A DNA stretch of 51,799 nt from a virus, in the IMG/VR virus record IMGVR_UViG_3300025141_000053, positions 32,001-83,799 of that record, one strand, 5' to 3'. Positions 31,484 through 51,799 of this stretch are shown one piece after another (position 1 is the stretch's first letter; every line of letters begins with the position of its first letter). Under the pieces are notes generated by a model that worked only from the letters and a program-made list of their open reading frames with translations, was not told the DNA's origin and searched no databases. A program made the position numbers and the translations under genes.

Positions 31484-32391
31484 TGATAGTACAATTAACT
31501 AAACTAGCAAATAAATTAGATATTTTTGGCTATATAAAAGAATCTAAATTTATAGATAAGTTAATTAGAGAAGCTATTGATATGTCACTTGTTGAAAAGT
31601 TTAAAGAGGGATGGTCTCCTGCTTGTCCTAATCCAAGTTGTAATAAGCCTGTAGAATTAGATCCTTCAGTTTTTACTAAAATGTTTGTCCCAGATGAGAT
31701 TTGTCCACATTGTGGAAGAAATTTTTCTCCACATGATGTTGGAGCAGTTAGAAAAACTTATGATGATACTGGAATAAATGATAAAACTCCTTTTAGTAGT
31801 GGACTAACTAATGAAGAAAGGGGTCTTTGGGGATTTTACAGTAACGGATTTTCTTATTTTGTGTTTCGGGGTAAAAGTAATGCTGAACAATTTTTAAAAA
31901 GATGGAGAAGTGGTGGATATGATCATTACCTAGATCTTATAATTGAAGATACTTATAAAGATTTAGATTTTGATATTTCAAGAATTGCTGAATATACAAT
32001 TATGAGAAATATAGAACTTATGACGGGGCCTCCTTTGGGTGAATTGTCAGACGATGATAAAGAATATATTAAACGGCGTGTTGGTAATCCCGGTAAAATA
32101 CAGAGCGAGATTCAAGAAAAAACATCTAAGATTATACCATTACCAGATATTGATTTAGGTAGCTCGGCAATTGTTCCTCCTGGAGAAATGCCACAACTGG
32201 AACATTATAAAGCTTTACATGATTCTGAAGAAATATTGGATATTGAGGAAAAGGATGAAGTTTGGAAAGAAGAATTGGATGGTGTTTATGACACTTATGT
32301 AAAGCCACTAAGAAAAGAACTTACAAAAAGGCGTGAGGCGAGAGATAAGGGGATAGACCCTGATACATTGGCAGACGATAAAATTTGGTAG
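31483..32391 (+). CDS. Leader-bearing Zn-ribbon protein (paralog of 26071-27036)
   Basis: MIVQLTKLANKLDIFGYIKESKFIDKLIREA; CPNPSC..CPHC..FSPHD; C-terminal DPDTLADDKIW. Confidence 0.8.
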   Translation: MIVQLTKLANKLDIFGYIKESKFIDKLIREAIDMSLVEKFKEGWSPACPNPSCNKPVELDPSVFTKMFVPDEICPHCGRNFSPHDVGAVRKTYDDTGINDKTPFSSGLTNEERGLWGFYSNGFSYFVFRGKSNAEQFLKRWRSGGYDHYLDLIIEDTYKDLDFDISRIAEYTIMRNIELMTGPPLGELSDDDKEYIKRRVGNPGKIQSEIQEKTSKIIPLPDIDLGSSAIVPPGEMPQLEHYKALHDSEEILDIEEKDEVWKEELDGVYDTYVKPLRKELTKRREARDKGIDPDTLADDKIW

Positions 32392-33854: not shown

Positions 33855-36800
33855 ATGATATCTAAAGTTACGGCGACAGATCTTGGCCAAATTGTAAATC
33901 TTCTGCAAAAACAATTGATGCCAGAAGAAACATCTCCTAAAACCAGTCCTCAAGAAACTGTTTCAAAAGAAACTATATTGAGACCGCTTCCTCTTGTTGA
34001 TACAAAATTAGCATATGATATTATTATTGGTTTAGAAACTGGTGGCAAATATGCTGTTGGAGATCTTGAGACTGGCTATGGATTGGTGGGAAACCAACTA
34101 TCAGCTTTTTCTAGACACCTATCAAAAGATCCACTATCTGAGAAAGTAACTGGAATAAGTTCTTCTGATTATAAAACAATTGGAAGTGCCCATGGTAATG
34201 CTTGTAGGGCACTGAGAAAAATAGATTATTGGAAAGAGGTTCCAATTGATCAAGATGCTGTCGAATCTTATTTTAAAAATAATCCTCGAAAATATAGACG
34301 GAAGGTTTTAAAATATACTTTACCAAATGGCGAAGCTATTATTGCCAAAAAGAAAGATGGTGGCTGGAAAGGATATGGTGTTGATTATAGTAAATTAAGT
34401 GGCTACATGAAAATAACTCCTGAGTCAAAGTCTAAAATCAATCGCATTGTTAGTAGATATATTACTGGCAATGTTAACTTAAGTGCTATAGCCAAATTAA
34501 AAGCTTCCCAAGATCATCCAGAACTTTATAAAAAATTTGATGATACATTTACTGATGCAAAAAAAGTAAGAAAAAATAAATCATTAATGGCATTATGTGA
34601 GAGAATGGCGCAAAGAGATTTCTCTGGCCGCATAAATTCTGTAGTTAAAATGGTTCAAAAATATGGATATGATGTTTCCAACTCACAAGCCTATAATATT
34701 TATCAACTAATAGCAATAGCAAATGCTAGTGGCCTTGGCCGACTTAGTAGATTCTTAAAAAACAAACAAACTTTTTCTGAAGGCCACTTATATTATTTAA
34801 AAAGGGCAAATCCTGCCATTCAAAAGAAAACTGGTATTTCAACACAAATGCCTCCGAATGGTGGGTTGGCTGGTTTTAAACAAAAGACAGCAATGATATC
34901 AAAGAGAGCAATTATGAAATCAATTCCTTTCCCACAAGATTATGTAGAGTCAATTAAGAATGGCCAGCGAACATTTACCATAAGACTTGAAGATTATGGT
35001 GTAGAGCCTGGTGATACTGTACAAGCTATTACAGATGCTGGTGCTCACTTCTGTGATCTTTCTATAGAAGAAGTAAAAAAAATGACTCCATATAAAATAG
35101 GGAAAGACATAAGTGAACCATTAGGACTTGATTTAGAGGAGAAGTTTAAATTTCAGCCCGAAGTAGAAAATTTCTTTGTTATTAAATTTTACAATCCTAA
35201 TATAAAATATGCTTCTGATAATAAACATATTGTGGTGGATGATGGGGCAGAATTTTTAATTAATGCGTTACATATATTAGATTCTTCTTTTTCAAATTGG
35301 GAAAAGTATATGGATTTTGAATATGACATTATAGAAAATTTTTCTTTATATCGTGTAAAATTTATAATTATATTAGATGATTTGCCAAATAATTTTATTA
35401 ATCTGAGTCCCTTATTTAGACAAGATATTTTCTCAAGAACAACTCATGAAGATCATTACATACAAGTATCGTCTTATATAAGGCAAGGAGAAACGGAAAA
35501 ATTTTCTGAAATTGTAGATATTTTATATAATATAATAGAAAAATCTATATCAAATCAAAAAACAATTATACAAAAATTTATTAAAACAATAGCATCTATT
35601 ATTTCTGATAATGATTATCATAAAGATGATGTTTACTCTGTAGTAGACCCGTTTTCAGTTTTTAATAGATCTAAAATAATTGTTCCTAAATCTAGTTTTG
35701 TTTTTAAATTGAGCGAATTTAATCTACTTCCTCAAGAAAGAGAAGTGTTTAATTTACATTTGGGCGAAGAAAAATCTAAAGAGACAGATTTTAAAATTTA
35801 TTCTAATAATGGCAAATCAATATTTATTATCTCATTAGAATATCCTGATGTAAAATATATTGATGAAAAAAAACAAAAAGAAAATGTTTTAGGGCAAAAA
35901 AAGAAAAATAAATTAATTGGTTTAAATACTGAAATGATGGATCATATCATAAAAGTTATGGGTAATAAGATTAAATCATTTAATAATGATGGTGTTAAAC
36001 CTGGTTTTGTTACAAAAGTATCAGAGTTATATCATGATCCATTTGGCGCTTCTGGAAAATTTTTTAACCAAGATATAGAAATTTTATTTCGCCTAGAAGA
36101 TAATCAAAAAGCAGCATATGAGGGGCTTTATAATAGCAAAAAGAAAACAATTTCTATTTGGATCCCAGAAGAAAACATAGATTATGAGAAAATAGAATCC
36201 CTGTTAGAACATGAATTAGCTCATAGCGGAGAAGTTGTTTCTGGAGACCCGAGTGCAAGTAAATATATTGGCCCAGATAGAAATTTTATGGCATATTTAC
36301 ATAATAAAAATGAAATAAATGCCAGGTGGGGACAAATACTATTATCTTTAAGAAGAGATGGGTTATCAAAACACCATTTAGATTTATTTATGCGTGAAAG
36401 AGAAAGAATGACCGAGAAAGAAGAAGAAATATTTATGGAACAAGTTCGTGGCAGGGTAGAAAAAAACGCAAGAACAATTTTAGAAGCTATCAATGAGGGT
36501 CATAATTCTGTAGATATGATTTATAAAGTATTAAATGGTAGATTTACAAAAAGAGCAATTGAGACATACATAGATCATCTTAGGGGAGATGGTTTTTTAA
36601 GTAATGCCTCTCGTTTAGATAAAATCAAAAAACTTGCCACACAAACATATAGTGATAGAAATGATAATACATATAATGTTGATGAACTTATTAAAATAAC
36701 AAAAGACAATAAAATTACTGATGAGCCAATTAAAAAGTTCAAAAAAAATCTTAAGAAAAAAATGTGGGAAGATTCTGATGATAATGAAATTTCCTTACAA

Positions 36801-39800
36801 GATGTATTGGATAATAAATCTAAATATAGAAAAGAATCTTCTAGGATAAAAGAAGTTGATCTCAAATATCCGATATTGGTATATAAAGATACGGTTGTTG
36901 ATGGAAATCATAGATTATCTAAAGCATTTGACGAAGAAAAAGAAACTATTAAGGTTAGATATGTTACCAATAAACAAATGGAAAAATGTTTAGAAAAGGA
37001 GATAGATTTCCCTAAGTCAGAACACAAAGATATTAAAAAACAATTAAAAGAGCGGGGACATATATACACAACTCGTGTTGATAAAGATTATGGAAAATAT
37101 AAAGAAGGTGACATACTAACATCTCCATTTGGAACATTAAGAGTTAAAGATGTTGATAAATATAATAAGTTAGAAGATCATCCACATCTAGATGAATTGA
37201 CCGATAAAAATAAAGAGGATATTGGAAAACACAAATACGAATATATAAAACTTATAAGAAAAGAATCAGAAAGGATGAGGTTGATTTCGAAGGTCGCTGA
37301 AGATATAAGTAAAAAAGATGATATCGAGAAAATAATTGATGATTTAAATCCTGATATTGTTATTGATGCAGATATTGTGAATGATATAATTTTAGAATTA
37401 TCATTTGAGAGCGATTATAAAGATTTTATAGACTTATCTGATGTTGTTACTGGTTTAAACAATAACGAAGCATCAGTAATGGTAAAAGAGCATAAAGCAA
37501 TAGTTAGTCTTATTGGCAGAAATGGGTTTTCTCCAGATTTAATAAGAAAGGCTGCGGCAAACATAAACAGTGCTTTTAAAAAATCAAAATTAAACCAAGA
37601 AGCTATAATGGTTAAGATTTGGGCCAAAGTGTTTGGGTCTGTATCATTTGGCTATGGTGTAAAAGATGAACACTATTCTTTTAAGCTTTCTAGTGGTCCA
37701 TTTAGAAGATCACTAAAAATATTATTTCCTGAAAATCCCACAACGCTGTCTTTGTCTGAATTAAATGTTGATGACTCAAAAAAAAGAGAATTTGGGGAAC
37801 ACATATCGAAGATTTTGGGATATGGAATAGTATTCAAGAATTTTAGGATATCAATTGAGGGTGATTACGTAATTCTACTTTGTGTCCCTGATATGAAAAG
37901 CTCTAACTATATTAGTTTAAGGGAACAAAGAAAAAATATTTTAGAGCAAAAAGAAAAAAACCTTAGTGATATTGGGATGAATGAAGATAAGTTTAATGAG
38001 TTATTAGAAAGGACAAAGGCTTATTATAATAGTTTTGAATATGATGAATATACTGCAGAGCCGATAGATGAAGATCATCCTTCAACGCCATTGGAAAAAA
38101 TTTGGAGTGATCCCTATGGCGCAGCCGGGAAATTTTTTAACAAAAACACTAAAATAGTTTTGGCATTTCACGAAAGAACTAAAAATAATGGAAAATATTC
38201 TGGAAAATATTTGCCTGATGAAAATTTAATTGTTGCTTATATTTCAGAAAACGACCATGTAGATTTGGCTATGATTGAATCTATTATAGAGCATGAATTA
38301 GTTCATAGTGGGCAAGGAGATTTTAGTGGATATATTAGTTCTGAAGAAAATAGTTTAATATATCTTTTAAATAAAAGTGAAATAGATGCCAGATGGGGAG
38401 AAATATTATTTAGTTTAAGAAAACATGGTCCTAGCCCTATTTATTATGGGTTGGTTAGTGATGAACGCAAAAGAATGACCAATCAAGAAAAAGATGTGTT
38501 TGATGAGTGTATTAAAAAAATAAGATCAAAATATCAAAATATTATTCTGGAAACAATAAATGAAGGGCATAACTCTATTGATATGGCATATGAGGCACTT
38601 GAAAGAAAATTCTCTAAGAAGGCAATAATGAAATATTTTGATGAGTTAGAATTTAATCATTTGATAGATACTGCCTCTCGCCTAGACCATATTAAAAAAC
38701 TTGCTTTTGGTGGAAAAGACCAGAAAATATTATATCACGTTGGTCCAAGGCCAGCCGAACCTAAGCCTTATAAACATAATATAGAAAAAGGATGGACTAG
38801 ATATTTTAAGGAAGATGGTGAACATAAAGTCATAAATTATGAACGTGCAGTATTTTTAACAAATAACTGGAAAAAGGTTTGGCAAAATCACGGTATTCAC
38901 GGAAATATTTACATATATAAAATTCCCATGGCCATGATAAAAGAGTCTGGTGGCATACAGAAATATGATTGGGCGACCGAAATTATATTTGATGAGAATT
39001 TATGGAATAAATATAAGAAAGATGTTGTTTTTGTTGGATCTATAGATGAACAAAAAGCAGAAGAAATAATGAAAGACTATTTTGAAACACGGCCAGGGAT
39101 TGGCAAAAAGCAATTAGAGAGAGAGATGGAAGATGTAGTTGATAGGCTTTTATCTGGCGAGGCAAATATAGAATCATATTCTTACTTTTCTAATGATCGT
39201 CTAAATACAATAAAAGATATGTTAAATAAAAAAAATGCTGGCGAGGAAATAGTCTCTCTTATTGATCGTATATTAAGAGTGAATGCCATTTACCAAAATA
39301 TCGATGACAGGGAAGCATCTAGGATTGATAGAATAAAAAAAATAGCCAATTTTCCAAATGAATTATTGGAGAAATTAGATGATATTAATTATGGATTGGT
39401 AACAACAGATGACGAGGAACTATCTCAAGAAAAAATGGATTCATTAGACGATGAGAATGTTGATTGGTGGAAAAATGGAGATAATATTAAGTTATTGACC
39501 ACAGAAGAGACATTAGATAGAAATATTGGAAGTTGTTATGAGCAAAGTCTTCTAGAATATAAACTATTGGATGAGGCTGGATATGACCCAATAATGGTAT
39601 TTGTTAATCCAGAAGATGGTGAGGGCAATGGGCACAGTGCTATCTTTTATAGTGAAGGAGATGAATGGTATTGGATAGAACATTCTTGGGGTGATCAACG
39701 GGGAATCCATGGACCTTATGATAATATAAATGACGGAATAGATATTATGATAGAAAAAATGTCGATGGGATGGAAAAATGTTACTAAATATTATTTAAAT

Positions 39801-42800
39801 AAAGATATGGATCCTTCTCTAATACTAGACAAAGAAGGATTGACTTATAAAGATTTTAAAACTCAAGGTTTGAAGGGAGCATCAATAGAGAATGTAGAAG
39901 AATATTGTAACGATGCTAAAGTAGGCTCAAGGCTTGACTTAATAAAGAAAGTTGCCAGAAGAATTAGTATACTATATTTACAAAAAAAATACAAACATGT
40001 TTATAAGCATATTGCTGATGAGTTAATAAGTGTGGGGAGATCTTCTAATAATTCTAAATTTTTTGACAATGATGATGATGCATTAGCTGCTTTGAGCCGG
40101 CCACCTGAAATTATACGAAGATATTTAAATGATAAACTTCCAAAAGATGTTATTGTAGAAGTTTATGATGATGGTATGGAGGATACGTTTTATTTGGGAC
40201 CGAGAGGCGGATATTTAGAAAAACCAATTAGTGGAAGATGGATTCATGTAAGTTGTCTTCCAAGGGGAAAAAATTTAGACAATTATCTTCGTAAATTTTT
40301 AAATATAGACAATCATGTTTGTTTTTCTTCGGTCGGAAATCAATCTGGAGATGAACTTTATGTAGAGGGAAGAACTGACCAATTTTTTGCAATCATTATG
40401 GATGGGGAGGCAGACGGGGCTTTTGGCCATGATGTTTATTCTGATATTGATGAGTGGACAAATAGAAGATGTATTTCTGGTTTGACTAAAAATAAGCGAA
40501 AGCCTCCCGAGACTATTTTTGAGGCTTGGGTTATCCCGAAACAATCAAAATTTGTTTGTATTGTTTCAAATATAGATTCTATTATAAAAGAAGCCGAAGA
40601 ACTTGGGATTAATATAGTTAAAAGTAGTCCAATTGGGTTTGGAAGGAGTGATAACGAAATAGATAAAACTGATTTGACTTATGAGGATAGTGTTGAACTA
40701 GAAAATGAACTAGAAGAAACAGATAAGTGGATGGATAAGGCTCAAGAATATGATTCTGATTATTATAGAAAACCAAAGAAAAATAAGTCTATAGTCGAGG
40801 AAGACGAGGAAGATTCATGGGAAGATTACGTCGAAATATCTGGATCAAGATTTGACCAGATTAACAAGTTAGCAGTTTCCCCAGAAAAACCTTCTGGTAT
40901 TTTAACGCCGCCAGAAGATAAAGTAAAAATGGTATCTGATTATATTCGTAAACATTTCTATCCAGCATTATTTTCACATTGGGGAAATTGGAAAGAAAAA
41001 TCAAATTTTATATTGAAAGAACTTAATGATGCCAAAAAACAATTGGAGCAAGACAAAAATGCTTTGCCATCAATCTGGATAAAAAGAGAAAAAACCAATT
41101 TGACCATTGATAAAAAAGAAACTAGTTGGTCGCTTTTTGGGAATGGAAAATTTCTAGATATTAAATTTTTATCAGCAGGTAATATAGATTTTAAAGAAAA
41201 AATTATAGATATAATTGACAAAGAAGAGAAGTCTTTGCGAGAGGATTTTGAGTGGGCTGGAAAAGTTCCACAAGAAAAAATTGATATTTTAAAAGAATAT
41301 GCCAATGGCCAAACTATTACTTTGCCAAATACAAAAGATTTTAATTTTGAAATAGACAATTATCCTATAATGATAAGAGTTGTTTTTGATCCTACAGCAA
41401 GAACACATTATCATTCAAGAGATTTTGTTGGATATATAATACTTGGATCACATTCATTTTCGCCATATCAAACAAATCAACAATATTTCTTTGAAGCACT
41501 TCGTGCTATCCCACATGAATTTACACATGTAATGCAAGATATTCTTGCCAAAAAACTAGGTAAAGAGAGACATGAGGTTGGTTTGTCTTCTTCTAGAATA
41601 GGTGATAAACCAGAGCATCATTTGAAACCACATGAATTTAAAACAAACTTAGTAACTACTATAGAAGATATTAAACAAAATTTATTACAATATCCTTCCG
41701 ATGAGAGAGGGGAAATCCTCAAAATGAGATTGGCAGTTATTCCTTCAGAAAATAATTATGGACCTTGGAATTTAACACATGATAGGACAATGGTTTTATT
41801 AAAAAAAGATGCTCCTATAAAATGGAAAAAAGCGGTCAAGGAAGTATATCAGGCAGTTGAAAATTTATTACAAGACAAAGTTGCCCAGAGGCTTAATCAG
41901 ATAAGAAAACTAGCACAAAGAAGCAAGTACGAAATACTTATTGGATATCTTATAAATATATTAAATGATATGAATGTATCGAAGTCAGAAGTTATTATTG
42001 GAGGAAGTGGAATTCTTGGCGCTTTAGGATTAAAATCTGTTGGCGATTTAGATATTACCATTCCGGATAAAAAAGCATGGAGACGGATATCACAACATCC
42101 TAATGGTATTGTGGATGAAATTCGCCCAGGAAATCCTAGAGTTAGATTTGATTTTCCAGAAGGTGAGTTAGAAATATTTACTGGGCCATGGAAAGTTGAC
42201 GAAAGAGATTTTGCTGAAAATATGCTATTAACAGATGTAGAGGGAATTAGTCATTGGAGTCCAGAGCATACGCTAGAATGGAAACAGATGATGAACAGAC
42301 CAAAAGACCAGAGCGATATTGAATTACTTGAAGGTTTAAATAAAAAATCTTCAAGACTTGATAAATTAGCAAATGAAATTACATATCTTAATCAAAAAGA
42401 ACAAGAAGAAAATGTTTTATATGATAAAAAAATGAAGAGAAATGTTGGATTAAATGAAAAATATATTTCTTCTCTTATTAATGGAACAAAATCATTTTAC
42501 AAAAATATAAATGAAGAGTACAAAAAATTGGGGATAGATGAATATAATCCTAAATCAACATATGATATTTCAAGTAGTCATCCATATCTTTATGTTGGAG
42601 ATATATATTTTGACCCATATGGAACATCAACAAAATTTTCAGACCCTACCCTTAAATTATATTTTATAAAGTTAGATCCTATGGCTGTAAGTAAAATCTG
42701 GGGCAATATGCCAAGAGTTGGTTATGGTGGAATATGTGGAGGAGACAAAATATTAGTTATGATTCCTGATTTCGACAATGTTGATTTGTCGAAAATAGAA

Positions 42801-45800
42801 TCTACTCTTGAACATGAATCAACACATGGGGGCTTAATCTCTTATCCAAAATATACGTCGATAGAAGATGGCGAAGAAAAGTATATGAGACAACACATAG
42901 AAGTAGATGCCAGATGGGCTGAGTTATTAAGAATTCTTAGACGATATGGTCCAGGAGATTATTTAACAAAGATTAAAAATTTAGAACTGGCAACTTTAAT
43001 AGATGTCGATGACAAGAAAAAATATAATGAACAGTTTAATAATATAGTAAATAAATATGCTGATATTATTTTAAATACTATTAATGAGGGATATAACTCA
43101 CCTGAAATGGTATATAAAGTATTAGATCGCAAGTTTACATTAGAGGCAATTAAGAAATATTTTGATTACTTAAAAGAAAAAGGGTTAATGAGTTATGCGT
43201 CAAGATTTGATAAGATATATAAATTAGCAGGAATCAGAGAAAATCTTATAAAAAAATATCCTGATTTAAAAAAATATATTTTAGAAGTAGCACACAAAAT
43301 CGATAAAAGATATCTAACATGGTTTACGAAACAACTTGTAAATTTTGAGAATAAACAAAGTGGCGCTGTACGATTATATGATTATATTACAGAATTTAAA
43401 AATCATCAGCAATTGTTGGAAAATAAAGATTTGTATCAATACAATTTCCAGTCTTTGCAAAAAGCTATTTCTGAAATAAAGAAACAGAAACATGAGGCGC
43501 GGGAAGTTGCAAAACAATATTTTGAGTTGTTAAAACAAAAAAGGGAAGAATATCGTAATTTAAATATGGATAGAAAAGAGATAAGATCAAAATCATATGA
43601 AGATGGGAGAAGATTTCTTAATAATATAGAACCTAAATCATTTCAGAGTTTTGTGAGACAAGAAATAAGTAAAGTTATTGAAGAAAGAGAGAGATTAAGA
43701 GGAAAGGAGAAAACGGCAAGAGAAAATTCTGATGTTATTTTTGAAGATGAGAACTATTTAGTAATATTGCCAGGAACAGAGCAGGCTTCTAAATATTTTG
43801 GTTCTGGGACACAATGGTGTACAGCGACAGAAGAAAATAATATGTTTGTAGTTTATTCTTTGGAAAATGTATATCTGTATTATATTTTAAATAAGGAAAA
43901 TGATGATAAACATGCTTATACAATTACTAAATATAATGATCAGATTGACGTAGACATTCGTGATATTGTTGATTTTCAAATAGATGAAGCAACTCTTAGT
44001 AAAGCACTTGGAAAATATTATGATAAGATAATTCCTATTATTAATAGAGATAATGAAGGTCGCAAGGAAACAAAATTCAAGGAAATAATTAAAACTATGT
44101 CTCCAACACAATTAAAAATAGAATTGGAAAACTTAGATATATCTCAGAAAATAATCCAATATGACTACTTAGAAGATTTTTCTAGAAATATGGAAACGAG
44201 AAAGTATTGTACAAGTCAATTAAAACTTTTTGCTACAAGAATAGCAACACATGATTGGACTAAAGCTGACTTGTTTTATGCGTATGGGTTAGATAAAAAG
44301 TATCCCGAATTACATGATTTATTAATCGAGACAATAGCGGAAGGCCCAGAACCAGAATTCTTTTTTGATATAGGAGGCTTGAGCGAGAAATATCCTAAGC
44401 TAGCAAGAATAATACTTGAAAGAATGTCTAATTCTGGAAATATAGCATTCTTTTATTCAAAACTACATGAAAAATATCCCGAATATATCAGTGAAAATTT
44501 GGCTTATAGTCTTTTACACGACATTGAAGTAAGTTATTTGTTTTTTAGATTGGGCTTGCATAAGAAGTATCCTAAAGTAGTTGAAGATAGTTCAGAAGTT
44601 TTCTTGTCTAATAGTCATGATATGAGAGAATTATATTTAGAATATAAAATATATAATATTATACCAAATATTGCTCCAGAAATAATAAAAAGTGGTTTGG
44701 ATAATGGGTATGAAAACTATTTTCGCTTTAATGTTTATGAAGATCCCAGATATAGACATTACGGAGAAGAATATTTAAAAAAATATATAAATGAAGAGGA
44801 TTCTTGGTATCTTGAGGAATTATTTGAAAAACATAATTTGTACGATATTTACCCCAATATATTAAATAATGTAAAAGGGGCTAATGAAAAAAGTGCTTTT
44901 AAGATTAGATTAAATAAAAAAGTAGCATCAAGATTTGATAAGATATATAAATTGGCAAACTCCATTTCTTTATATCATTATGCCCCAAAAGAAGCCTATG
45001 AAGATATAAAAGAAAAAGGGTTAATGAGTTATGCGTCAAGATTTGATTTAATTAATAAGATAGCATCAGGAGATAGCACCAACTATCCAGAAGAACTATT
45101 AGAAAAAATGGATGATATTGATTATGGGTTGGTTACAATAGATGATGAAGAACTATCTCCGAAAAAAATGGATTCAATGGATGCCAAGAATGTTGATTGG
45201 TGGCAAGAGGGAAATAATATTAAATTATTGACTACAGAAGAGACATTAGATAGAAATATTGGCAGCTGTTACGAGCAAAGTCTTTTAGAATATAAATTAT
45301 TAAGTGAAAGTGGATATGATCCAATAATGATATTTATTCGGCCAAAAGATGGTGAGGGTAACGGACATAGTGCTGTTTTTTACAATGAGGAAGATGGATG
45401 GTATTGGATAGAACATTCATGGCATGACCAAAAGGGGATTCATGGACCTTATGAAAACATGAATAATGGGATAGATATTGTAATAGAAAAAATGTCTATG
45501 GATTGGAGAGATGTGACTAAATATTATCTAAATAAAAATATGAACATTTCTTCCATATTAGATAAGAAGAATCTGACATATAATGATTTCCAGACTCAAG
45601 GTTTGAGGGGTGCCTCATTAGAAAATATAGATACAGAATTTTATTTATATCATTATAGTCCAAAAGATGTAAGAAAAGATATAGAAGAAAGTGGTTTGAA
45701 GTCTCCATATGGATTAATTGACGATAATGACTATAAAGAACGTATAGAAAATTATAGAGATCGTACAGCAGAAACAATGGGTGTTCCCAAATCTAAAGTA

Positions 45801-46307
45801 ACTTATGAAGATGTTTTGGAAGGTTTAGAAAAAAGGCGTGAAGCAATGTTTGATGGTGAGGGAGGATCAAGAGCCCTATCTGTTCTTTTAGAGCCTATTC
45901 CTACTAATATTAAAGGAATAAATAAAGATATTAAAGAATATGCTGAAGAACATGATCTTTATAATATTGATTTTGTGGCAGCAGTAAGAGATGGAGTTAT
46001 AGAAAAGGCATCAATCGTAGAAGAAAAAGTGCGAAGTGAGCGCCCAGTTGAATTAGAAGATTTTATAACAGAACTAAAGGGCTCAAGAATTAAGGAAGAT
46101 CAATGGAAAGAAAAGGGGAAATTCTATTTTTCTGGTAAAGCACATGCCATGTTAGTTTTAAAAGATGGTATTTTGCCAAGCAAATATATATACAGAATTG
46201 AACATAAGCCAAGTACAAAAGATGCCAGAAAGGAAGAAATAGTGGAACTGATGACAGATGATGAGTTAGTTGAGACATATAATAATCTTATCGGAGAAAA
46301 TTCATGA
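33855..46307 (+). CDS. Giant polyvalent protein (4150 aa): SLT/lysozyme-like, ASCH, four HExxH zincin, ParB-N-like, ART-like, two transglutaminase-like, nucleotidyltransferase and PcfJ-like modules separated by repeated linkers
   Basis: LETGG..YGLVGNQ..ANASG; SIKNGQRTFTIR (ASCH, ~34914); HELAH 36210, HELVH 38292, HEFTH 41514, HESTH 42813; YPILV..VVDGNHRL; LYHVG..VFLT; GSCYEQS..GHSA..WYWIEHSW twice; IIGGSG..GDLDI..RPKDQSD; ASKYFGSGTQWCTA; LYHYSP..IEESGL. Confidence 0.85.
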   Translation: MISKVTATDLGQIVNLLQKQLMPEETSPKTSPQETVSKETILRPLPLVDTKLAYDIIIGLETGGKYAVGDLETGYGLVGNQLSAFSRHLSKDPLSEKVTGISSSDYKTIGSAHGNACRALRKIDYWKEVPIDQDAVESYFKNNPRKYRRKVLKYTLPNGEAIIAKKKDGGWKGYGVDYSKLSGYMKITPESKSKINRIVSRYITGNVNLSAIAKLKASQDHPELYKKFDDTFTDAKKVRKNKSLMALCERMAQRDFSGRINSVVKMVQKYGYDVSNSQAYNIYQLIAIANASGLGRLSRFLKNKQTFSEGHLYYLKRANPAIQKKTGISTQMPPNGGLAGFKQKTAMISKRAIMKSIPFPQDYVESIKNGQRTFTIRLEDYGVEPGDTVQAITDAGAHFCDLSIEEVKKMTPYKIGKDISEPLGLDLEEKFKFQPEVENFFVIKFYNPNIKYASDNKHIVVDDGAEFLINALHILDSSFSNWEKYMDFEYDIIENFSLYRVKFIIILDDLPNNFINLSPLFRQDIFSRTTHEDHYIQVSSYIRQGETEKFSEIVDILYNIIEKSISNQKTIIQKFIKTIASIISDNDYHKDDVYSVVDPFSVFNRSKIIVPKSSFVFKLSEFNLLPQEREVFNLHLGEEKSKETDFKIYSNNGKSIFIISLEYPDVKYIDEKKQKENVLGQKKKNKLIGLNTEMMDHIIKVMGNKIKSFNNDGVKPGFVTKVSELYHDPFGASGKFFNQDIEILFRLEDNQKAAYEGLYNSKKKTISIWIPEENIDYEKIESLLEHELAHSGEVVSGDPSASKYIGPDRNFMAYLHNKNEINARWGQILLSLRRDGLSKHHLDLFMRERERMTEKEEEIFMEQVRGRVEKNARTILEAINEGHNSVDMIYKVLNGRFTKRAIETYIDHLRGDGFLSNASRLDKIKKLATQTYSDRNDNTYNVDELIKITKDNKITDEPIKKFKKNLKKKMWEDSDDNEISLQDVLDNKSKYRKESSRIKEVDLKYPILVYKDTVVDGNHRLSKAFDEEKETIKVRYVTNKQMEKCLEKEIDFPKSEHKDIKKQLKERGHIYTTRVDKDYGKYKEGDILTSPFGTLRVKDVDKYNKLEDHPHLDELTDKNKEDIGKHKYEYIKLIRKESERMRLISKVAEDISKKDDIEKIIDDLNPDIVIDADIVNDIILELSFESDYKDFIDLSDVVTGLNNNEASVMVKEHKAIVSLIGRNGFSPDLIRKAAANINSAFKKSKLNQEAIMVKIWAKVFGSVSFGYGVKDEHYSFKLSSGPFRRSLKILFPENPTTLSLSELNVDDSKKREFGEHISKILGYGIVFKNFRISIEGDYVILLCVPDMKSSNYISLREQRKNILEQKEKNLSDIGMNEDKFNELLERTKAYYNSFEYDEYTAEPIDEDHPSTPLEKIWSDPYGAAGKFFNKNTKIVLAFHERTKNNGKYSGKYLPDENLIVAYISENDHVDLAMIESIIEHELVHSGQGDFSGYISSEENSLIYLLNKSEIDARWGEILFSLRKHGPSPIYYGLVSDERKRMTNQEKDVFDECIKKIRSKYQNIILETINEGHNSIDMAYEALERKFSKKAIMKYFDELEFNHLIDTASRLDHIKKLAFGGKDQKILYHVGPRPAEPKPYKHNIEKGWTRYFKEDGEHKVINYERAVFLTNNWKKVWQNHGIHGNIYIYKIPMAMIKESGGIQKYDWATEIIFDENLWNKYKKDVVFVGSIDEQKAEEIMKDYFETRPGIGKKQLEREMEDVVDRLLSGEANIESYSYFSNDRLNTIKDMLNKKNAGEEIVSLIDRILRVNAIYQNIDDREASRIDRIKKIANFPNELLEKLDDINYGLVTTDDEELSQEKMDSLDDENVDWWKNGDNIKLLTTEETLDRNIGSCYEQSLLEYKLLDEAGYDPIMVFVNPEDGEGNGHSAIFYSEGDEWYWIEHSWGDQRGIHGPYDNINDGIDIMIEKMSMGWKNVTKYYLNKDMDPSLILDKEGLTYKDFKTQGLKGASIENVEEYCNDAKVGSRLDLIKKVARRISILYLQKKYKHVYKHIADELISVGRSSNNSKFFDNDDDALAALSRPPEIIRRYLNDKLPKDVIVEVYDDGMEDTFYLGPRGGYLEKPISGRWIHVSCLPRGKNLDNYLRKFLNIDNHVCFSSVGNQSGDELYVEGRTDQFFAIIMDGEADGAFGHDVYSDIDEWTNRRCISGLTKNKRKPPETIFEAWVIPKQSKFVCIVSNIDSIIKEAEELGINIVKSSPIGFGRSDNEIDKTDLTYEDSVELENELEETDKWMDKAQEYDSDYYRKPKKNKSIVEEDEEDSWEDYVEISGSRFDQINKLAVSPEKPSGILTPPEDKVKMVSDYIRKHFYPALFSHWGNWKEKSNFILKELNDAKKQLEQDKNALPSIWIKREKTNLTIDKKETSWSLFGNGKFLDIKFLSAGNIDFKEKIIDIIDKEEKSLREDFEWAGKVPQEKIDILKEYANGQTITLPNTKDFNFEIDNYPIMIRVVFDPTARTHYHSRDFVGYIILGSHSFSPYQTNQQYFFEALRAIPHEFTHVMQDILAKKLGKERHEVGLSSSRIGDKPEHHLKPHEFKTNLVTTIEDIKQNLLQYPSDERGEILKMRLAVIPSENNYGPWNLTHDRTMVLLKKDAPIKWKKAVKEVYQAVENLLQDKVAQRLNQIRKLAQRSKYEILIGYLINILNDMNVSKSEVIIGGSGILGALGLKSVGDLDITIPDKKAWRRISQHPNGIVDEIRPGNPRVRFDFPEGELEIFTGPWKVDERDFAENMLLTDVEGISHWSPEHTLEWKQMMNRPKDQSDIELLEGLNKKSSRLDKLANEITYLNQKEQEENVLYDKKMKRNVGLNEKYISSLINGTKSFYKNINEEYKKLGIDEYNPKSTYDISSSHPYLYVGDIYFDPYGTSTKFSDPTLKLYFIKLDPMAVSKIWGNMPRVGYGGICGGDKILVMIPDFDNVDLSKIESTLEHESTHGGLISYPKYTSIEDGEEKYMRQHIEVDARWAELLRILRRYGPGDYLTKIKNLELATLIDVDDKKKYNEQFNNIVNKYADIILNTINEGYNSPEMVYKVLDRKFTLEAIKKYFDYLKEKGLMSYASRFDKIYKLAGIRENLIKKYPDLKKYILEVAHKIDKRYLTWFTKQLVNFENKQSGAVRLYDYITEFKNHQQLLENKDLYQYNFQSLQKAISEIKKQKHEAREVAKQYFELLKQKREEYRNLNMDRKEIRSKSYEDGRRFLNNIEPKSFQSFVRQEISKVIEERERLRGKEKTARENSDVIFEDENYLVILPGTEQASKYFGSGTQWCTATEENNMFVVYSLENVYLYYILNKENDDKHAYTITKYNDQIDVDIRDIVDFQIDEATLSKALGKYYDKIIPIINRDNEGRKETKFKEIIKTMSPTQLKIELENLDISQKIIQYDYLEDFSRNMETRKYCTSQLKLFATRIATHDWTKADLFYAYGLDKKYPELHDLLIETIAEGPEPEFFFDIGGLSEKYPKLARIILERMSNSGNIAFFYSKLHEKYPEYISENLAYSLLHDIEVSYLFFRLGLHKKYPKVVEDSSEVFLSNSHDMRELYLEYKIYNIIPNIAPEIIKSGLDNGYENYFRFNVYEDPRYRHYGEEYLKKYINEEDSWYLEELFEKHNLYDIYPNILNNVKGANEKSAFKIRLNKKVASRFDKIYKLANSISLYHYAPKEAYEDIKEKGLMSYASRFDLINKIASGDSTNYPEELLEKMDDIDYGLVTIDDEELSPKKMDSMDAKNVDWWQEGNNIKLLTTEETLDRNIGSCYEQSLLEYKLLSESGYDPIMIFIRPKDGEGNGHSAVFYNEEDGWYWIEHSWHDQKGIHGPYENMNNGIDIVIEKMSMDWRDVTKYYLNKNMNISSILDKKNLTYNDFQTQGLRGASLENIDTEFYLYHYSPKDVRKDIEESGLKSPYGLIDDNDYKERIENYRDRTAETMGVPKSKVTYEDVLEGLEKRREAMFDGEGGSRALSVLLEPIPTNIKGINKDIKEYAEEHDLYNIDFVAAVRDGVIEKASIVEEKVRSERPVELEDFITELKGSRIKEDQWKEKGKFYFSGKAHAMLVLKDGILPSKYIYRIEHKPSTKDARKEEIVELMTDDELVETYNNLIGENS

Positions 46308-49300
46308 AAAAAGAAAAATTATTAGATCTTGTAAAAAATGAAATGAAGAAAAGAAAAATTGATGTGTCTCAAAATGTTGATGATAACTATCGTACACAAT
46401 TTGATGGACAGCTTTGGGGTAAAGATTTTCAAGATCCAGAAACCGGATTATATGGTGATCCTCCTTCTGGAGATAGTGGGGTTATTACTAATCCTCCACC
46501 AATGGGGATGTTTTCCACAAGAACTGCTCAGAAACTTCTTGAAAGAATATGGACATTCGGAGAATTATGTAAGTTTGCTGTTGAAGATGATGAAGAAGAA
46601 GATGTAAATATTATAGATGTAGAAACAGTTGAGGAAGATTTAGAAGTAGATGAAGAAGGCGTCGTTGAACCAAAGCCATTTTCTCCTAAAAAAATAGTAG
46701 AATATATTCCTGCGCCACAACCGGCTAAAGCAATATCTTCAGAGGAGACTGAGGATTTCACATATGTTAAAAAGCCCCAAGTGAAAGAGGTTATAGAAGA
46801 GCCGGTAGTAGAAGAGGAAAAGACTGAAGAAGAGCCGGTAGTAGAAGAGGAAAAGACTGAAGAAGAGCCGGTAGTAGAAGAGGAAAAGACTGAAGAAGAA
46901 TTAAAAAAGGAATTGAAAGACCAAGAACTTCAGGAACAACTGGCGTCATTTTTAGAAGATCTCGATGACGAAGACTCTGACGATTCGGAAATTGATGACG
47001 ACAATCCTCTAAATAGTATGACGTTTGATGATTCCATTCCTGAATATATATCTGAGGAAGAAATTGAAAAACGCAGAGTTTATATGGAAAAAGTACATGG
47101 CATTCATGGAAGAAGTTATGCTGGATATTCTGAACTTATGAAAAGCGAATTTGGTTTGATTCCAGTAGACCAGCCAACTTTAGGAGACAAGAGAGAAGAG
47201 TTGAGTGACTTACCAGATGAAGAGACCGATCATTATTTTAACAAGAAAACACTTGGATCTCGTGAGGCGATTGATGAGTTATTTAGTTTGGGTACTACTT
47301 GGAGAGAACTGGGTAGACGATTAAAAGAAAATCCTGATTTTATATCATATCGTATTTTGCCAATGTTAACATTAATAGTTGGGAAAAGTGTTATAAAGAA
47401 AATTGTTAATTCTAGATATTTCTCGAAAGACCATAGTTCCATTTTCATAAGAGGTGTTAAGATACCTGTGGGAACAATTTGGATATATGGTCCTGGAATC
47501 AAAATACAGAGACCCGCACCAGAAGTTATTATTTTTGCACAAAAAGAAATACCTAAAATTTTAAAAGTTTATTTAGAAAATGGCTCGTCAAGCCCGCCCA
47601 AGGCTCCGATAATGGGCTATTTAACTAAGGCATTAGTAAATAACTTAAGCAACCATTTAGTAAGAGATACGGGAAATACTGTCTTAAAAACCAGACCAAC
47701 TTGCTCATTTTGTAATTTAAATAGAGGAAAAATTACAACTGACATGAAGTATGAGGGAGGATCTGGAAAGAAGCCATTGGAACCTGTTAGTCGAGGAAAA
47801 TATTTCTGTCCAAGATGCTATCAATATATCAGACATATGGAAAATAAGATGGATGAATTTAAAAAAGAGATGGACGAGACAAAATATATAATTGAACAGG
47901 CTCGTGCTTCTAATATGTTAGAAGTGGCAGAAGATCGGGAAGTTGTGTTAGCAGGACAAGAGCATAAAATGAAGGCCCTGGCTGACAGACATTGGGCTGC
48001 TAAAATATTTGCTAGACCGTCGAGGCAGCATATTGTTTGTCCAGAAGATTCATGTAGCGGTAGACAGAAAACTATAAATAATGAATATATGCCATCAAGA
48101 ATTCCTATTTCTTGTGTACACTGGGATCATCCATATTTTAGTGCGATTGACACAGAAACAAAAATGCAGGTAGAAAAAAAATTACTTACTTTTGGTGTTC
48201 AACCACCAGTTCAAACAGCAGATGATGCTCAAGTAGATGTTCCAAAAGATAGAATAAATTATAAAAATGTATTCATGGCTCCAGAAATATTATCTGAAGT
48301 TCCATTTAAGTGCCCATTTTGTTTTAATGTTTTCACGCCAAATTCGGCAAAAAATAAGGCAAATGGATGGGGTGGTTTGTTTATCAGACCAAGAGTTATT
48401 AAGTGGAATGAACCAGAACCATTTACTTTTCTTGATGAATGGGAAAACTTACAACCTTCTGCAGAAAAAGGAAATGAGGAAAATGATAAAAAGACACATT
48501 TTATTATTCCCCAACATTTTATTGAGTTGCTATTATTTGAGTTGACAAGACAAAGTAATAGTGTAAATACTAGACTCATATCAATGTCTCAAAAGAAATT
48601 ACCACCACAAAAAGAAATATCTGAACTTAAAAGGATGGGAAAATTGCTTGATGGTATTATTTCAAAAATTCATAATGATTTAAAATATCCAGAAAAAGAA
48701 TCGAAATTTGTCAACTCTTTTGGTAAATGGTTCTTTTTTAGAAGAGAAACTGGCGGCACGAAGAAGGACACCGACTTATATCCAATTTTTTCAAGCATAG
48801 TTGCTGATGACTTAGACTCTGTTGTAGATAATTTCGAAAGTGTAAAAGGAAATGAGACAGAGATAATGAAAGAGTTGGAAGAAAAACTTGGCCCCGGATT
48901 GACATTTGGAGGATTTAGAGGTGCGGCAAATGTGCTAAATAATATCCCTCAATTTGGAAATGTTAAAAAATCCCAATTAAGACCATATTTTGGTTTTGTT
49001 GGCCAAGTAGATGGCAATGGTATTGTTAGAGTGCCAGGTGTTATAGGCAACAAAAAATTTAAAACAGAAAATATAATTATCGGTGATGTGCTTTTTGCCA
49101 AGAATCTTGGAAATGATTGCCCCAACAAAGTTGTAAGTTTCAAGCCAGATTTATTTTCTGGAGAATTTTTAGATAGAAAACTAATTACAGTATTTTCTAG
49201 AAAAGTAGACATGAGCAGATTTTTTGATGTTAGTAAAGAGATCATGGAACAAATTGAAGAAATGAGAAAGAAATATGTTCGTGCTGGAACTCCAACAGGA

Positions 49301-51799
49301 GATCATTTCACAAAGCAACCAAAGCTTTTTACATTATTTGTATTACAACAGCACAGAAATGAAGAGAATATAAAAGAATTGCTTGAAAATATGAATGAAA
49401 TTTATTCTGCTGGACCTGTACGTGGATTTAGAGCAAGAGCCGCTGATGCTTATTTTAGAAAATGTTTAGAAAAGGCCATAGAGAAGTACAAACTTCCAGA
49501 AGATGATATCACATTAGAAGAGGGAAATTACGTATATGTTTATTGTATGTTTGTAAACAGACAAAATATGTCCAGAAAATACTTTTATAATATTTCTGGA
49601 AGACTTGGTTCTGGTACAAGAATAACAGAAAAATTATATAGTGATGCTAATAATGAATTATATAAGAGAATGAAAAATCCTGAGCATAAAAATAATGAAT
49701 GGTTTAATGGATATTTAAAAACTTTAGAATTATATGGGATAGATCCACCAGATATTTCTCTTCCAAAAAATACAGTTGAAGAAGTTATAAAAAGTGAGTC
49801 TTCATTGAAAAATAGATTTGTAAGATCCTCTTTGAAACAATATAAACAAAAAAGGGATTTTGACCATCAAGGACGTAAAGGTAGTATTGTAAAAACATTA
49901 AAAACTTTTAACAGGCTTGGTGCTAAAACTTTCAATGTAAAACGTTTTGTTTTAAATAAAAAAGCTTCTATGATTCAAAATCCGCCATTATTAGAAAATA
50001 AGATTTTGGATTGGGCCGTTAACTATTTCAATTATAGAGTAAAAGAAGAATGTGAAGTTATCATGGGCATGAGAAAAGACCCTGATTTTTTTGAGAAACA
50101 ATTAAAAATTTTGATTAAAACATATTCTGTTGATAATATTGACAATATAGATCTAACTATCCCAAAACATCATATTTCTTTTTATAAAAACATAAAAACT
50201 GAAAAAGGAAATGTTGCTGGAGAAGTTACAAAAAAAGAAATAGTTTTTTCTCCTACACATAATTTTCTAAATTGCATCACTAATATAGCACATTATCGGC
50301 CTAATAAGATGCTTTATTTTAATAAAGTAGAGGACGCGTTAGAAACTCTAAATAAGTTACTTCTAGACGAGCTTTTTCAAAGCGATATATATTTTGGTGA
50401 TTTTCAATTAAATGTTATTAACGATTTTTCAGTTTCAGAAATTTACAATTTGGTAAAAAATGCTAAATTAGAAGAACATGAGAAAAGAATAGAAATTAAT
50501 GACAGCATTTTATCTGGATGGAAATATTCTTATAACGCCCCTGTTAAAGGTAACTTATTTGTGAAAATTTTAGAAAAAAAAGGTAAGGCATCGGTAAGTT
50601 CAGAAATAGGAAAATCATTTCCAGCAACCCTTAAAATTCCAATTTTAACTTATAAATATGATGTTTTTATTGACCGACAAAAAGGAGAGTTTACAAATCC
50701 TCCTACGGTAGAAAAATATTTAAAATCATTAGAAGATTTTAAAGATATTGTTATTCATGAAATAATGCATGTTTCTCAACATATTTTACAGGACACTAAG
50801 TTTGATGTTGTAAGTCGCAAAATTAAGCATAAGGACTCTGACTCTGATACCATGAGGGCGTTTTTTGGAAAGGAAAGGGCCCATTTGGAGCGTGATATAG
50901 AGTTTTTTCCAGACATTTTTTCACTTTCAAGACTATATGAAAGCGTAGAAGAAGTTTTAAAGCGCGATGATATGAAAAAATTATTAGAAAAAGATCCTGA
51001 AAGATGGAGGGAGTTTGTAAAGCAATTATATAAACAAATGGATGAGTTGGGAAAGTCAACTAAAATGGAGTCAAAATATTCTATAAAAGAGGCTTTAAAT
51101 ACTAGAAGAAGTAAAGTAAAAATTGCTGCCAAGAAATATTCTAGTATGATTGAAAAAATAGTAAATTCTTCTTTAACCCAATATAAATCCAAACGGGATT
51201 TTAATGAAACATTAGAGCCTGAAGGAAAAGAATATAAAGATAAAAATAAATATAGATTTGTAATTCAAGACCATTTTGCTGATAAAGCTGGACGCCATTT
51301 TGATTTAAGGTTAGAAAATAATGAAGGAACGTTATCGAGTTGGGCAATACCAAAGCATAAATTGCCTAGCGGAAAAGCAAAACTCTTGGCTGTAAAAACT
51401 GAAGATCATCCAATTTCTTATAATAAATTTGAGGGAGAAATCCCAAATGGATATGGTAAAGGACATATGAAGATTTATGATTCTGGAAATTATGAAGAGA
51501 TTGAGTCTAAAAAAGATAGTATTATTTTCAAATTAAACGGAAAAAAAGAAACGGGCTCATATACATTATTTAATACTGATGAAAGTCAGTGGTTAATAAT
51601 GCAACATAAAAAAGAAAAAGAAGCATCTCGGTTTGATCAAATATATAAGTTGGCCGTTCCTTCTGATGCTAGAGTTTTAGAAAATATAAATCTAAAAAAA
51701 TTAAAGGAGAGCAATCCTCTAACACCAAATGGGGATGAATTACAAAATTATTATTCAAAAATGAATGAAATGGCCAAGTCTGGTCCAGAATATTCTAAA
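46304..51799 (+). CDS. Second giant modular protein (>1832 aa, 3'-truncated; not in the ORF track) with Zn fingers, an HExxH module and a LigD 3'-phosphoesterase domain
   Basis: ATGA overlap with the upstream stop and GGAG SD. The same frame reads sensibly at the start, middle and end, and no terminated ORF is listed in this frame. CSFC..CPRC, CPFC; HEIMH 50756-50770; YKSKRDFNETLEP..FVIQDHFA..HFDLRLE..SWAIPK..LAVKTEDHP..FEGEIPNGYGKG (~51180-51600); linker EASRFDQIYKLA. Confidence 0.85.
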   Translation, partial: MKKEKLLDLVKNEMKKRKIDVSQNVDDNYRTQFDGQLWGKDFQDPETGLYGDPPSGDSGVITNPPPMGMFSTRTAQKLLERIWTFGELCKFAVEDDEEEDVNIIDVETVEEDLEVDEEGVVEPKPFSPKKIVEYIPAPQPAKAISSEETEDFTYVKKPQVKEVIEEPVVEEEKTEEEPVVEEEKTEEEPVVEEEKTEEELKKELKDQELQEQLASFLEDLDDEDSDDSEIDDDNPLNSMTFDDSIPEYISEEEIEKRRVYMEKVHGIHGRSYAGYSELMKSEFGLIPVDQPTLGDKREELSDLPDEETDHYFNKKTLGSREAIDELFSLGTTWRELGRRLKENPDFISYRILPMLTLIVGKSVIKKIVNSRYFSKDHSSIFIRGVKIPVGTIWIYGPGIKIQRPAPEVIIFAQKEIPKILKVYLENGSSSPPKAPIMGYLTKALVNNLSNHLVRDTGNTVLKTRPTCSFCNLNRGKITTDMKYEGGSGKKPLEPVSRGKYFCPRCYQYIRHMENKMDEFKKEMDETKYIIEQARASNMLEVAEDREVVLAGQEHKMKALADRHWAAKIFARPSRQHIVCPEDSCSGRQKTINNEYMPSRIPISCVHWDHPYFSAIDTETKMQVEKKLLTFGVQPPVQTADDAQVDVPKDRINYKNVFMAPEILSEVPFKCPFCFNVFTPNSAKNKANGWGGLFIRPRVIKWNEPEPFTFLDEWENLQPSAEKGNEENDKKTHFIIPQHFIELLLFELTRQSNSVNTRLISMSQKKLPPQKEISELKRMGKLLDGIISKIHNDLKYPEKESKFVNSFGKWFFFRRETGGTKKDTDLYPIFSSIVADDLDSVVDNFESVKGNETEIMKELEEKLGPGLTFGGFRGAANVLNNIPQFGNVKKSQLRPYFGFVGQVDGNGIVRVPGVIGNKKFKTENIIIGDVLFAKNLGNDCPNKVVSFKPDLFSGEFLDRKLITVFSRKVDMSRFFDVSKEIMEQIEEMRKKYVRAGTPTGDHFTKQPKLFTLFVLQQHRNEENIKELLENMNEIYSAGPVRGFRARAADAYFRKCLEKAIEKYKLPEDDITLEEGNYVYVYCMFVNRQNMSRKYFYNISGRLGSGTRITEKLYSDANNELYKRMKNPEHKNNEWFNGYLKTLELYGIDPPDISLPKNTVEEVIKSESSLKNRFVRSSLKQYKQKRDFDHQGRKGSIVKTLKTFNRLGAKTFNVKRFVLNKKASMIQNPPLLENKILDWAVNYFNYRVKEECEVIMGMRKDPDFFEKQLKILIKTYSVDNIDNIDLTIPKHHISFYKNIKTEKGNVAGEVTKKEIVFSPTHNFLNCITNIAHYRPNKMLYFNKVEDALETLNKLLLDELFQSDIYFGDFQLNVINDFSVSEIYNLVKNAKLEEHEKRIEINDSILSGWKYSYNAPVKGNLFVKILEKKGKASVSSEIGKSFPATLKIPILTYKYDVFIDRQKGEFTNPPTVEKYLKSLEDFKDIVIHEIMHVSQHILQDTKFDVVSRKIKHKDSDSDTMRAFFGKERAHLERDIEFFPDIFSLSRLYESVEEVLKRDDMKKLLEKDPERWREFVKQLYKQMDELGKSTKMESKYSIKEALNTRRSKVKIAAKKYSSMIEKIVNSSLTQYKSKRDFNETLEPEGKEYKDKNKYRFVIQDHFADKAGRHFDLRLENNEGTLSSWAIPKHKLPSGKAKLLAVKTEDHPISYNKFEGEIPNGYGKGHMKIYDSGNYEEIESKKDSIIFKLNGKKETGSYTLFNTDESQWLIMQHKKEKEASRFDQIYKLAVPSDARVLENINLKKLKESNPLTPNGDELQNYYSKMNEMAKSGPEYSK
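46796..46894 (+). repeat. 33-nt perfect tandem repeat x3 encoding EEPVVEEEKTE
   Basis: gaagagccggtagtagaagaggaaaagactgaa occurs three times. Confidence 0.97.

Follow-up and report, generated by a model that had tools for sequence, protein, structure and literature searches.

A short, predicted helical peptide recurs at the module junctions of giant polyvalent proteins in a rare marine phage clade

Two adjacent genes of an uncultured marine phage encode giant multi-module polyvalent proteins, P0001 and P0002, in which one 11-residue peptide, (A/G)-S-R-(F/L/I)-D-x-I-x-K-(L/I/V)-A, is repeated at nearly every junction between enzyme modules. The genes lie in the window, by which we mean the whole stretch of 51,799 nucleotides analysed here; it is the final 51.8 kb of an 83.8-kb (83,799-base) IMG/VR virus record, IMGVR_UViG_3300025141_000053 (positions 32,001 to 83,799). 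The motif is real but confined to a rare clade, and it is a site where whole modules are exchanged by recombination. We tentatively propose that the peptide also serves as a docking helix during head assembly.

An 11-residue peptide repeated in three adjacent genes

An earlier note, made from the letters of the window, had listed 13 copies of the motif, and each of them was located by sequence check on the plus strand where the note had placed it (Table 1). A strict regular expression, applied to six-frame translations of both the window and the whole 83,799-base record, retrieved 12 copies. All strict matches were confined to three adjacent genes (32401-33846, 33855-46307 and 46304-51799), which encode P0003, P0001 and P0002, respectively. 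The rest of the 84-kb record contained no strict match. When the three proteins were shuffled 5000 times, the mean expectation was 0.0008 matches (maximum 1). A hidden Markov model (HMM) built from the copies, as the note had suggested, scored 11 of them at 9.6-19 bits against 6.8 bits for the best background match. A chance origin of the motif is ruled out by the HMM separation and the shuffles. It is also not the mere end of one duplicated domain, as it adjoins at least 10 unrelated segment families.

The copies differ at synonymous sites. Serine is encoded by TCT or TCA, arginine by CGT, CGC, CGG, AGA or AGG and leucine by TTA, CTT, CTA or TTG, and the isoleucine and alanine codons vary as well. 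Therefore, selection acts on the peptide and not only on the DNA. The copy at 37266 was at background level in the HMM (4.1 bits). Judged by comparison with the related giant P0005, it is a decayed linker and not a chance match, because P0005 has a canonical copy at the orthologous junction, behind the same module.

Related giant proteins came from marine metagenomes and comprise P0005 (4583 residues), P0006 (2896), P0007 (3332), P0010, P0011 (3824), P0013 and the giant of L007/L010. The motif is present in all these relatives, and there are about nine related giant proteins in total. P0002 is cut off by the end of the record, and its full form is P0012 (at least 2393 residues); in P0005, P0006 and P0011 a P0002-like part is fused to a P0001-like part. 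A profile of 27 copies was searched against 1.84 billion representative proteins and returned 7 matches, all of them giants of this clade. A DNA pattern for the junction between linker and PcfJ-like module found one IMG/VR locus and four metagenome loci. One of these, the sediment locus L009, had no other motif copy and is probably due to chance. No confirmed locus was obtained when relatives of the P0002 core were sought in IMG/VR and the JGI metagenomes. Separately, the region just 3′ of the giant gene in L001 (L001:18742-19200) holds out-of-frame PcfJ-like repeat fragments that end in a perfect linker (23.3 bits); they represent a module in decay or else an extension reached by frameshifting.

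Module borders, terminal copies and the shape of the linker

The earlier note took the motif to mark the boundaries of modules, and segment alignments, BLAST alignment ends, a structure model and the starts of DNA homology blocks all agree with this. The segments between motif copies are mostly 138-565 residues long and align end to end with segments of the relatives (209/209, 141/141, 274/275 and 295/295 residues). Their order differs from giant to giant, the ParB-like module standing before one zincin unit in P0001 and after it in P0005. Of the BLAST alignment ends, 13-23% lay no more than 5 residues from a motif, compared with 2-4% for random positions, which is above all 1000 random draws. 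Motif-free domain borders also exist: several domains lie within residues 1-917 of P0001, and several more within the P0012 core of 1773 residues.

At the DNA level, 188 nucleotides of the window (44924-45111) match a stretch of another giant gene, that of L003, at 100% identity. Two further blocks of DNA homology (87-92% identity) start 18 and 4 nucleotides into linkers, and a 41-nucleotide exact repeat was found between two linkers. Moreover, the motif's second half varies in step with the module that follows it. One junction in P0006 retains K-I-A alone, so the motif is not needed for folding. The pattern is that of a site at which whole modules are exchanged by recombination; a role in recombination alone leaves the selection on the peptide unexplained.

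Among 48 unique copies from nine giants the consensus is A-S-R-(F/L)-D-x-I-x-K-L-A, with I7 and K9 each kept in 47 copies, R3 in 44 and S2 in 37. The four positions after the motif show no preference. The pattern S-x-x-D caps the N-terminal end of helices, and S2 and D5 of the motif fit it. The residues give a high hydrophobic moment at the helical angle of 100 degrees per residue and a low one at 160, the angle of a strand. Together these features suggest an N-capped amphipathic helix. An AlphaFold2 model of P0001 residues 2670-3200, made from a 7-sequence alignment, has a confident zincin-A domain (predicted local distance difference test score, pLDDT, 70-93), followed by coil and then by a short linker helix with pLDDT <50; the nucleotidyltransferase part of the same model is poor. 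The linker thus falls outside the folded zincin-A domain, as the earlier note had expected of linkers, and is probably mobile.

The clearest view of an isolated copy comes from P0003, the conserved protein encoded upstream of P0001, the two genes lying in different frames and 8 nucleotides apart. In its model, a helical N-domain is followed by an acidic, disordered stretch and an alpha/beta domain, after which a disordered tether of 33 residues (433-465) leads to an isolated terminal helix (466-480), and this helix is the motif. In five orthologues R-x-D-K-I-x-A-L-A is invariant and stands three residues from the end, and the tether varies in both length and sequence. P0003 is thus predicted to present a short conserved peptide at its extreme end, behind a variable disordered linker. 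Fold searches of P0003 gave generic helical-bundle matches only (Z <=8.6), with the alpha/beta domain barely sampled, and a fold search against a viral library gave nothing below E 1e-3. Terminal copies are also found in the giants. P0005 and P0013 end 4-5 residues after a copy, whilst P0007 begins with one, in two independent metagenomes.

A related element occurs on other proteins of the head block. In L004, a two-helix unit is found at N-terminal, internal and C-terminal positions of at least 6 small head-block proteins. Its second helix matches the linker consensus, with A-S-x-h-D-x-h-h-K-x-A in one case and D-x-I-x-K-x-A in all. In the window, 31-residue N-terminal leaders were confirmed on the genes at 26071, 28890 and 31483. 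Because the tag is found at N-terminal, internal and C-terminal sites, its sequence positions fit an interaction module better than a propeptide. Two small proteins (L004:15260-15655 and L004:5814-6356) consist almost solely of two tag copies, one of them with a Cys-rich tail in addition; proteins made almost wholly of two tag units are easier to understand as interaction modules than as propeptides. As a separate observation, the three leaders of the window (26071-26100, 28890-28920 and 31483-31512) have the linker's second half, L-x-K-L-A, at their start (residues 5-9), and an N-R/K-L-D resembling its first half follows directly, so that each leader resembles a linker junction in permuted order.

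Possible docking, cleavage and exchange at the junctions

The giant genes sit in the head-morphogenesis block, directly after the terminase and portal genes. The order in the window is terminase, portal, a 302-residue protein, P0003 and then the two giants, and four relatives (L001, L002, L005 and L010) share the order terminase, portal, P0003-like protein and giant. From this position we infer that the giant proteins are packaged in the head. The earlier note's description of P0001 and P0002 as polyvalent proteins held: P0001 has 4150 residues and P0012 at least 2393, and at least 12 segments align independently to relatives. Polyvalent proteins were described as very large proteins with many conflict-related enzyme modules (Iyer, Burroughs, Anand, de Souza and Aravind 2017, PMC5512222). 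The giants resemble them in candidate zincin-like, ParB-like, nucleotidyltransferase and PcfJ domains, in a DNA-end-processing domain, in a location beside head genes and in a predicted co-delivery with the DNA. They differ in that no junction peptide is given in PMC5512222, whereas here an 11-residue helix is predicted at nearly every junction and also at the termini of neighbours. We found no account of the linker in the literature, in keeping with the earlier note, and the word 'linker' occurs 0 times in PMC5512222. Polyvalent proteins are thus already known, and it is the junction helix and its distribution that are apparently undescribed.

Our preferred explanation, which we hold tentatively, is that the motif is a protein-protein docking helix with a putative head-assembly partner, with or without a later cut. 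The giants would be virion-associated strings of independently folding modules, most junctions of which carry one portable peptide, and the linker would be a single-helix version of the clade's two-helix head-block tag. Each helix would tie its module to a common head-assembly partner, be it scaffold or core, shell or portal, and the cargo would thereby be built into the prohead. Since the same peptide with partly identical DNA stands at every such junction, it would also be where modules recombine. A cut next to the helix, in the manner of the T4 capsid-targeting sequence, may come later and is not required. Docking is favoured by the conservation over 11 residues, the free residues after the motif, the terminal copies on tethers and the kinship with the two-helix tag.

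Known systems offer partial likenesses. The T4 capsid-targeting sequence of internal proteins and Alt is likewise short and amphipathic and brings cargo proteins of unrelated kinds into the prohead core, and P0007, which starts with the motif, and the small head proteins with a related N-terminal leader recall it. However, the T4 sequence is strictly N-terminal and is removed, whereas 47 of the 48 unique copies in the nine giants, all except that of P0007, and the copy in P0003 are internal or C-terminal, with up to 12 per chain and no sequence similarity. The coat-binding helices of P22 and herpesvirus scaffolds and the cargo-loading peptides of encapsulins are tethered terminal peptides that dock inside an HK97-fold shell, which the P0003 model matches. 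This likeness is one of predicted architecture and not of homology, and repetition inside a polyprotein has no counterpart there. Polymorphic toxins have demarcation motifs, VENN in CdiA and DPxGL in Rhs, which are also conserved peptides at the border of exchangeable modules and recombination junctions, and DPxGL is a self-cleavage site as well. Unlike the linker, they occur once per protein, before a variable toxin tip; the likeness is one of function only, and they bear no sequence relation to it.

Several points count against docking. In the 10 kb that follow the protease gene described below, a PHROGs search recognised no major capsid protein of the clade. One tag per protein would be enough, and 12 selected copies are easier to understand if the modules get separated. 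Moreover, every copy that has decayed or been shortened still ends in K-(L/I/V)-A at the junction, which resembles the P3-P1 positions of a protease site, and viral polyprotein cleavage sites likewise combine a conserved motif N-terminal of the junction with unconstrained residues behind it.

These points lead to the reading of the earlier note, in which the motif is the site of a prohead maturation protease and the giants are cut after K-(L/I/V)-A into at least a dozen ejected effectors. The note had called for a search for such a protease gene. None is present on this 84-kb fragment, which CheckV rates 21% complete, but one was found in a syntenic relative: in L001/L004, ~5.7 kb downstream of the giant, a gene codes for a protein of 1315 residues whose N-terminal part is a prohead-protease domain (phrog_18299, E 5.7e-11; NCBIfam NF045541, E 5.6e-8), the rest being long, charged and scaffold-like. 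The presence of the motif at almost every module junction, each copy being under selection, would suit a cleavage site, as would the survival of K-h-A in the altered copies. Herpesvirus assemblin, which has the same fold as HK97-type prohead proteases, cleaves after Ala, and this provides a lead for such a site. A precedent is SPN3US, whose ejection proteins are cleaved at a motif of three residues, in some cases at more than one position (PMC10052503). The processing of T4, phiKZ, 201phi2-1 and SPN3US proheads is comparable more generally in its short repeated motifs, nearby protease gene and multi-site cuts (PMC10052503). However, the known motifs are three residues long, end in Glu (L/I-x-E for T4 gp21, A/S/G-x-E for phiKZ and SPN3US) and mainly delimit N-terminal propeptides, whereas the element here is an 11-residue putative helix that ends in Ala and lies between whole enzyme modules. 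A capped helix of this length would also be atypical, proteases usually binding extended chains. No copy of the full motif occurs in the portal, in the protease-scaffold protein or in any of the other open reading frames (ORFs) of the head block, and a cut in P0003 would take off just three residues, yet all five orthologues keep this tail unchanged. The frequency of the short core [ILVM]-x-K-h-A is 0.86 per 1000 residues in replication ORFs, as expected by chance, and 1.09 in small head-block ORFs; in the giants the core occurs once outside linkers. Pervasive K-x-A sites in late genes are therefore not supported, as the core is not enriched outside linkers. On balance, we regard a prohead maturation site as unlikely.

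The cut could instead be made by the zincin-like metallopeptidase modules embedded in the giants, acting in cis or in trans and either before the giants are packaged or after they are injected. Five HExxH motifs were read from the sequences of P0001 and P0002, and each of the three zincin-A copies of P0001, like those of P0005, P0010 and P0011, has a linker as its immediate end. Iyer et al. predicted that peptidases of this kind process polyvalent proteins (PMC5512222). Against this, the AlphaFold2 model places the linker as a free, low-confidence helix that is neither in nor near the zincin cleft, and the zincin fold was not confirmed by fold search: the matches listed for the zincin-A model were taken up by its nucleotidyltransferase and winged-helix parts. 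N4 virion RNA polymerase and ArdC carry a peptidase domain of this kind and travel uncleaved (PMC5512222). The P0003 tail and the terminal copies are difficult for this explanation too, and we consider it very improbable. Cleavage as the primary role of the motif, with prohead protease and embedded zincins taken together, is doubtful, though it deserves serious attention. A version that joins both roles, in which a dedicated protease, be it the prohead protease or the embedded zincins, recognises the helix, cuts after K-(L/I/V)-A and frees at least a dozen effectors, each keeping its helix as a C-terminal docking tag, is also to be doubted, if not strongly. If true, this would unite address and cut in one grammar by which a modular arsenal is loaded and unloaded, and the giant ORFs would be true polyproteins of a double-stranded DNA phage.

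The motif might also be a helical spacer that is neutral for folding and neither bound nor cut, its shared DNA allowing modules to be swapped, much as with VENN. The cassette at 44924 that is identical to another giant, the two other blocks starting inside linkers, the repeat between two linkers and the co-variation of the second half with what follows would all be expected of such a spacer. The P0006 junction that works without the motif fits as well, and the phage encodes a UvsX-like recombinase. However, synonymous sites differ whilst the peptide is kept, pointing to selection on the peptide and not on DNA identity, and the invariant terminal copy of P0003 and the related tag on unrelated head proteins are left unexplained. 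A neutral spacer is thus quite unlikely, and docking remains the reading that we prefer.

Many phages and plasmids are considered to use polyvalent proteins as their opening salvo, and the packing, delivery and any dismantling of these chains of ten or more enzymes have only been predicted since 2017. A short, defined junction peptide makes questions of binding, cutting and cargo loading testable with small constructs. The loci also show how such an arsenal may evolve, with whole modules swapped at a shared junction sequence, including the identical 188-nucleotide cassette between different giants. The scope is that of a rare clade (7 matches in 1.84 billion representatives) and an uncultured phage, with function proposed from sequence and models.

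Modules and neighbouring genes

Every large ORF of the window is on the plus strand. The CheckV completeness of the record (21%) implies a phage of roughly 400 kb, and the window also encodes a Pol III alpha-type DNA polymerase. The features discussed are collected in Table 1.

Table 1. Genes, motif copies and modules of the window, in nucleotide positions of the window.
Feature	Position	Strand	Remarks
Large terminase	27037-28878	+	
Portal, 663 residues	29232-31223	+	
P0003, 481 residues, conserved, upstream of P0001	32401-33846	+	5 orthologues aligned; AlphaFold2 model
Motif, C-terminal in P0003	33802-33834	+	9.6 bits; followed by 3 residues and stop codon
P0001, polyvalent protein, 4150 residues	33855-46307	+	
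Linker 1, after first zincin-A module	36606-36638	+	15.0 bits
ParB-N-like module, D-G-N-H-R motif, 209 residues	36639-37265	+	phrog_17560, E 5e-11
Decayed linker (from sequence comparison)	37266-37298	+	4.1 bits; P0005 junction canonical
Linker, after second zincin-A module	38673-38705	+	15.4 bits
Linker	39315-39347	+	9.9 bits
Linker, after transglutaminase-like module	39924-39956	+	12.4 bits
Linker, behind acidic stretch	40842-40874	+	15.6 bits
Linker, before nucleotidyltransferase-like module	41883-41915	+	9.9 bits
Nucleotidyltransferase-like module, 141 residues	41916-42338	+	End-to-end alignment to P0005 2009-2152
Shortened linker, 8 residues	42348-42371	+	Middle three residues deleted, K-L-A kept
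Third zincin-A module, HExxH and winged-helix-like end	42372-43196	+	pLDDT 70-93
Linker, modelled as short isolated helix	43197-43229	+	17.5 bits; DNA homology to other giants begins inside
Linker	44925-44957	+	188-nucleotide block identical to L003 starts 1 base ahead of first codon
25-residue module stub between two linkers	44958-45032	+	Same stub in P0007
Linker	45033-45065	+	14.4 bits
P0002, second giant, cut off by record end	46304-51799	+	
LigD 3′-phosphoesterase module	51266-51571	+	Pfam E 4.5e-24; PDB E 3e-25
Linker, before PcfJ-like module	51623-51655	+	19.0 bits

The earlier note had also assigned enzyme modules to the segments between linkers, and these assignments fared unevenly. 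The LigD phosphoesterase is solid. The ParB-N, nucleotidyltransferase and transglutaminase-like assignments are weak: the ParB-N label depends on the D-G-N-H-R motif and a PHROG family of unknown function, the nucleotidyltransferase-like module has weak fold matches (Z 5-6) to terminal uridylyltransferases, ANT(2'') and MenT, and the transglutaminase-like, ASCH and DUF2268 matches fall below the Pfam cut-offs. The ParB-N-like module is homologous end to end with modules in P0005, P0006 and P0011. The PcfJ-like module is partial in the window, which contains only its first 48 residues (51656-51799); PcfJ (PF14284) is recorded for relatives of the giant proteins. For the 'ART-like' module, no tool gave support. 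The 25-residue stub is interpreted as a recombination scar. A PDB sequence search of P0001 returned no match, no stand-alone homologues of the zincin-A module were found, a search for shorter homologues of P0001 residues 1600-3200 gave one fragment only, and none of the loci contained small ORFs homologous to a polyprotein module.

A number of further observations concern the giants and their neighbours. P0011 (L005:4604-16078) carries a full LigD-type end-joining set in one chain, with an ATP-dependent ligase domain, Prim-Pol and phosphoesterase, where P0002 has the phosphoesterase only; a DNA-end repair kit of this kind would be unusual cargo, if packaged. A core of ~1150 residues in P0002 (window 46370-49870, residues about 23-1187) is conserved in P0005, P0006 and P0011, contains a number of Cys-x-x-Cys pairs and in every case forms the longest block without a linker; it gave no family or structure match. 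Three tandem 33-nucleotide repeats near the start of P0002 (window 46779-46899) encode an acidic stretch rich in E, P and V. The N-terminal domain of P0001 (window 33960-35220, residues about 38-456) is conserved in four relatives, and its E-T-G...G-Y-G-L-V-G-N-Q pattern, which has no Pfam match, recalls the lytic transglycosylases of ejected phage proteins. Between the giant and protease genes of L004 (L004:6369-7805) lies P0009, a protein of 478 residues with an H-E-G-A-H motif and a Gly/Ser/Asp-rich tail, which may be another metallopeptidase of the head block. Lastly, the portal of L001 (L001:3691-7917) has 1408 residues with Hint/intein and LAGLIDADG matches, an insert that the portal of the window does not contain.

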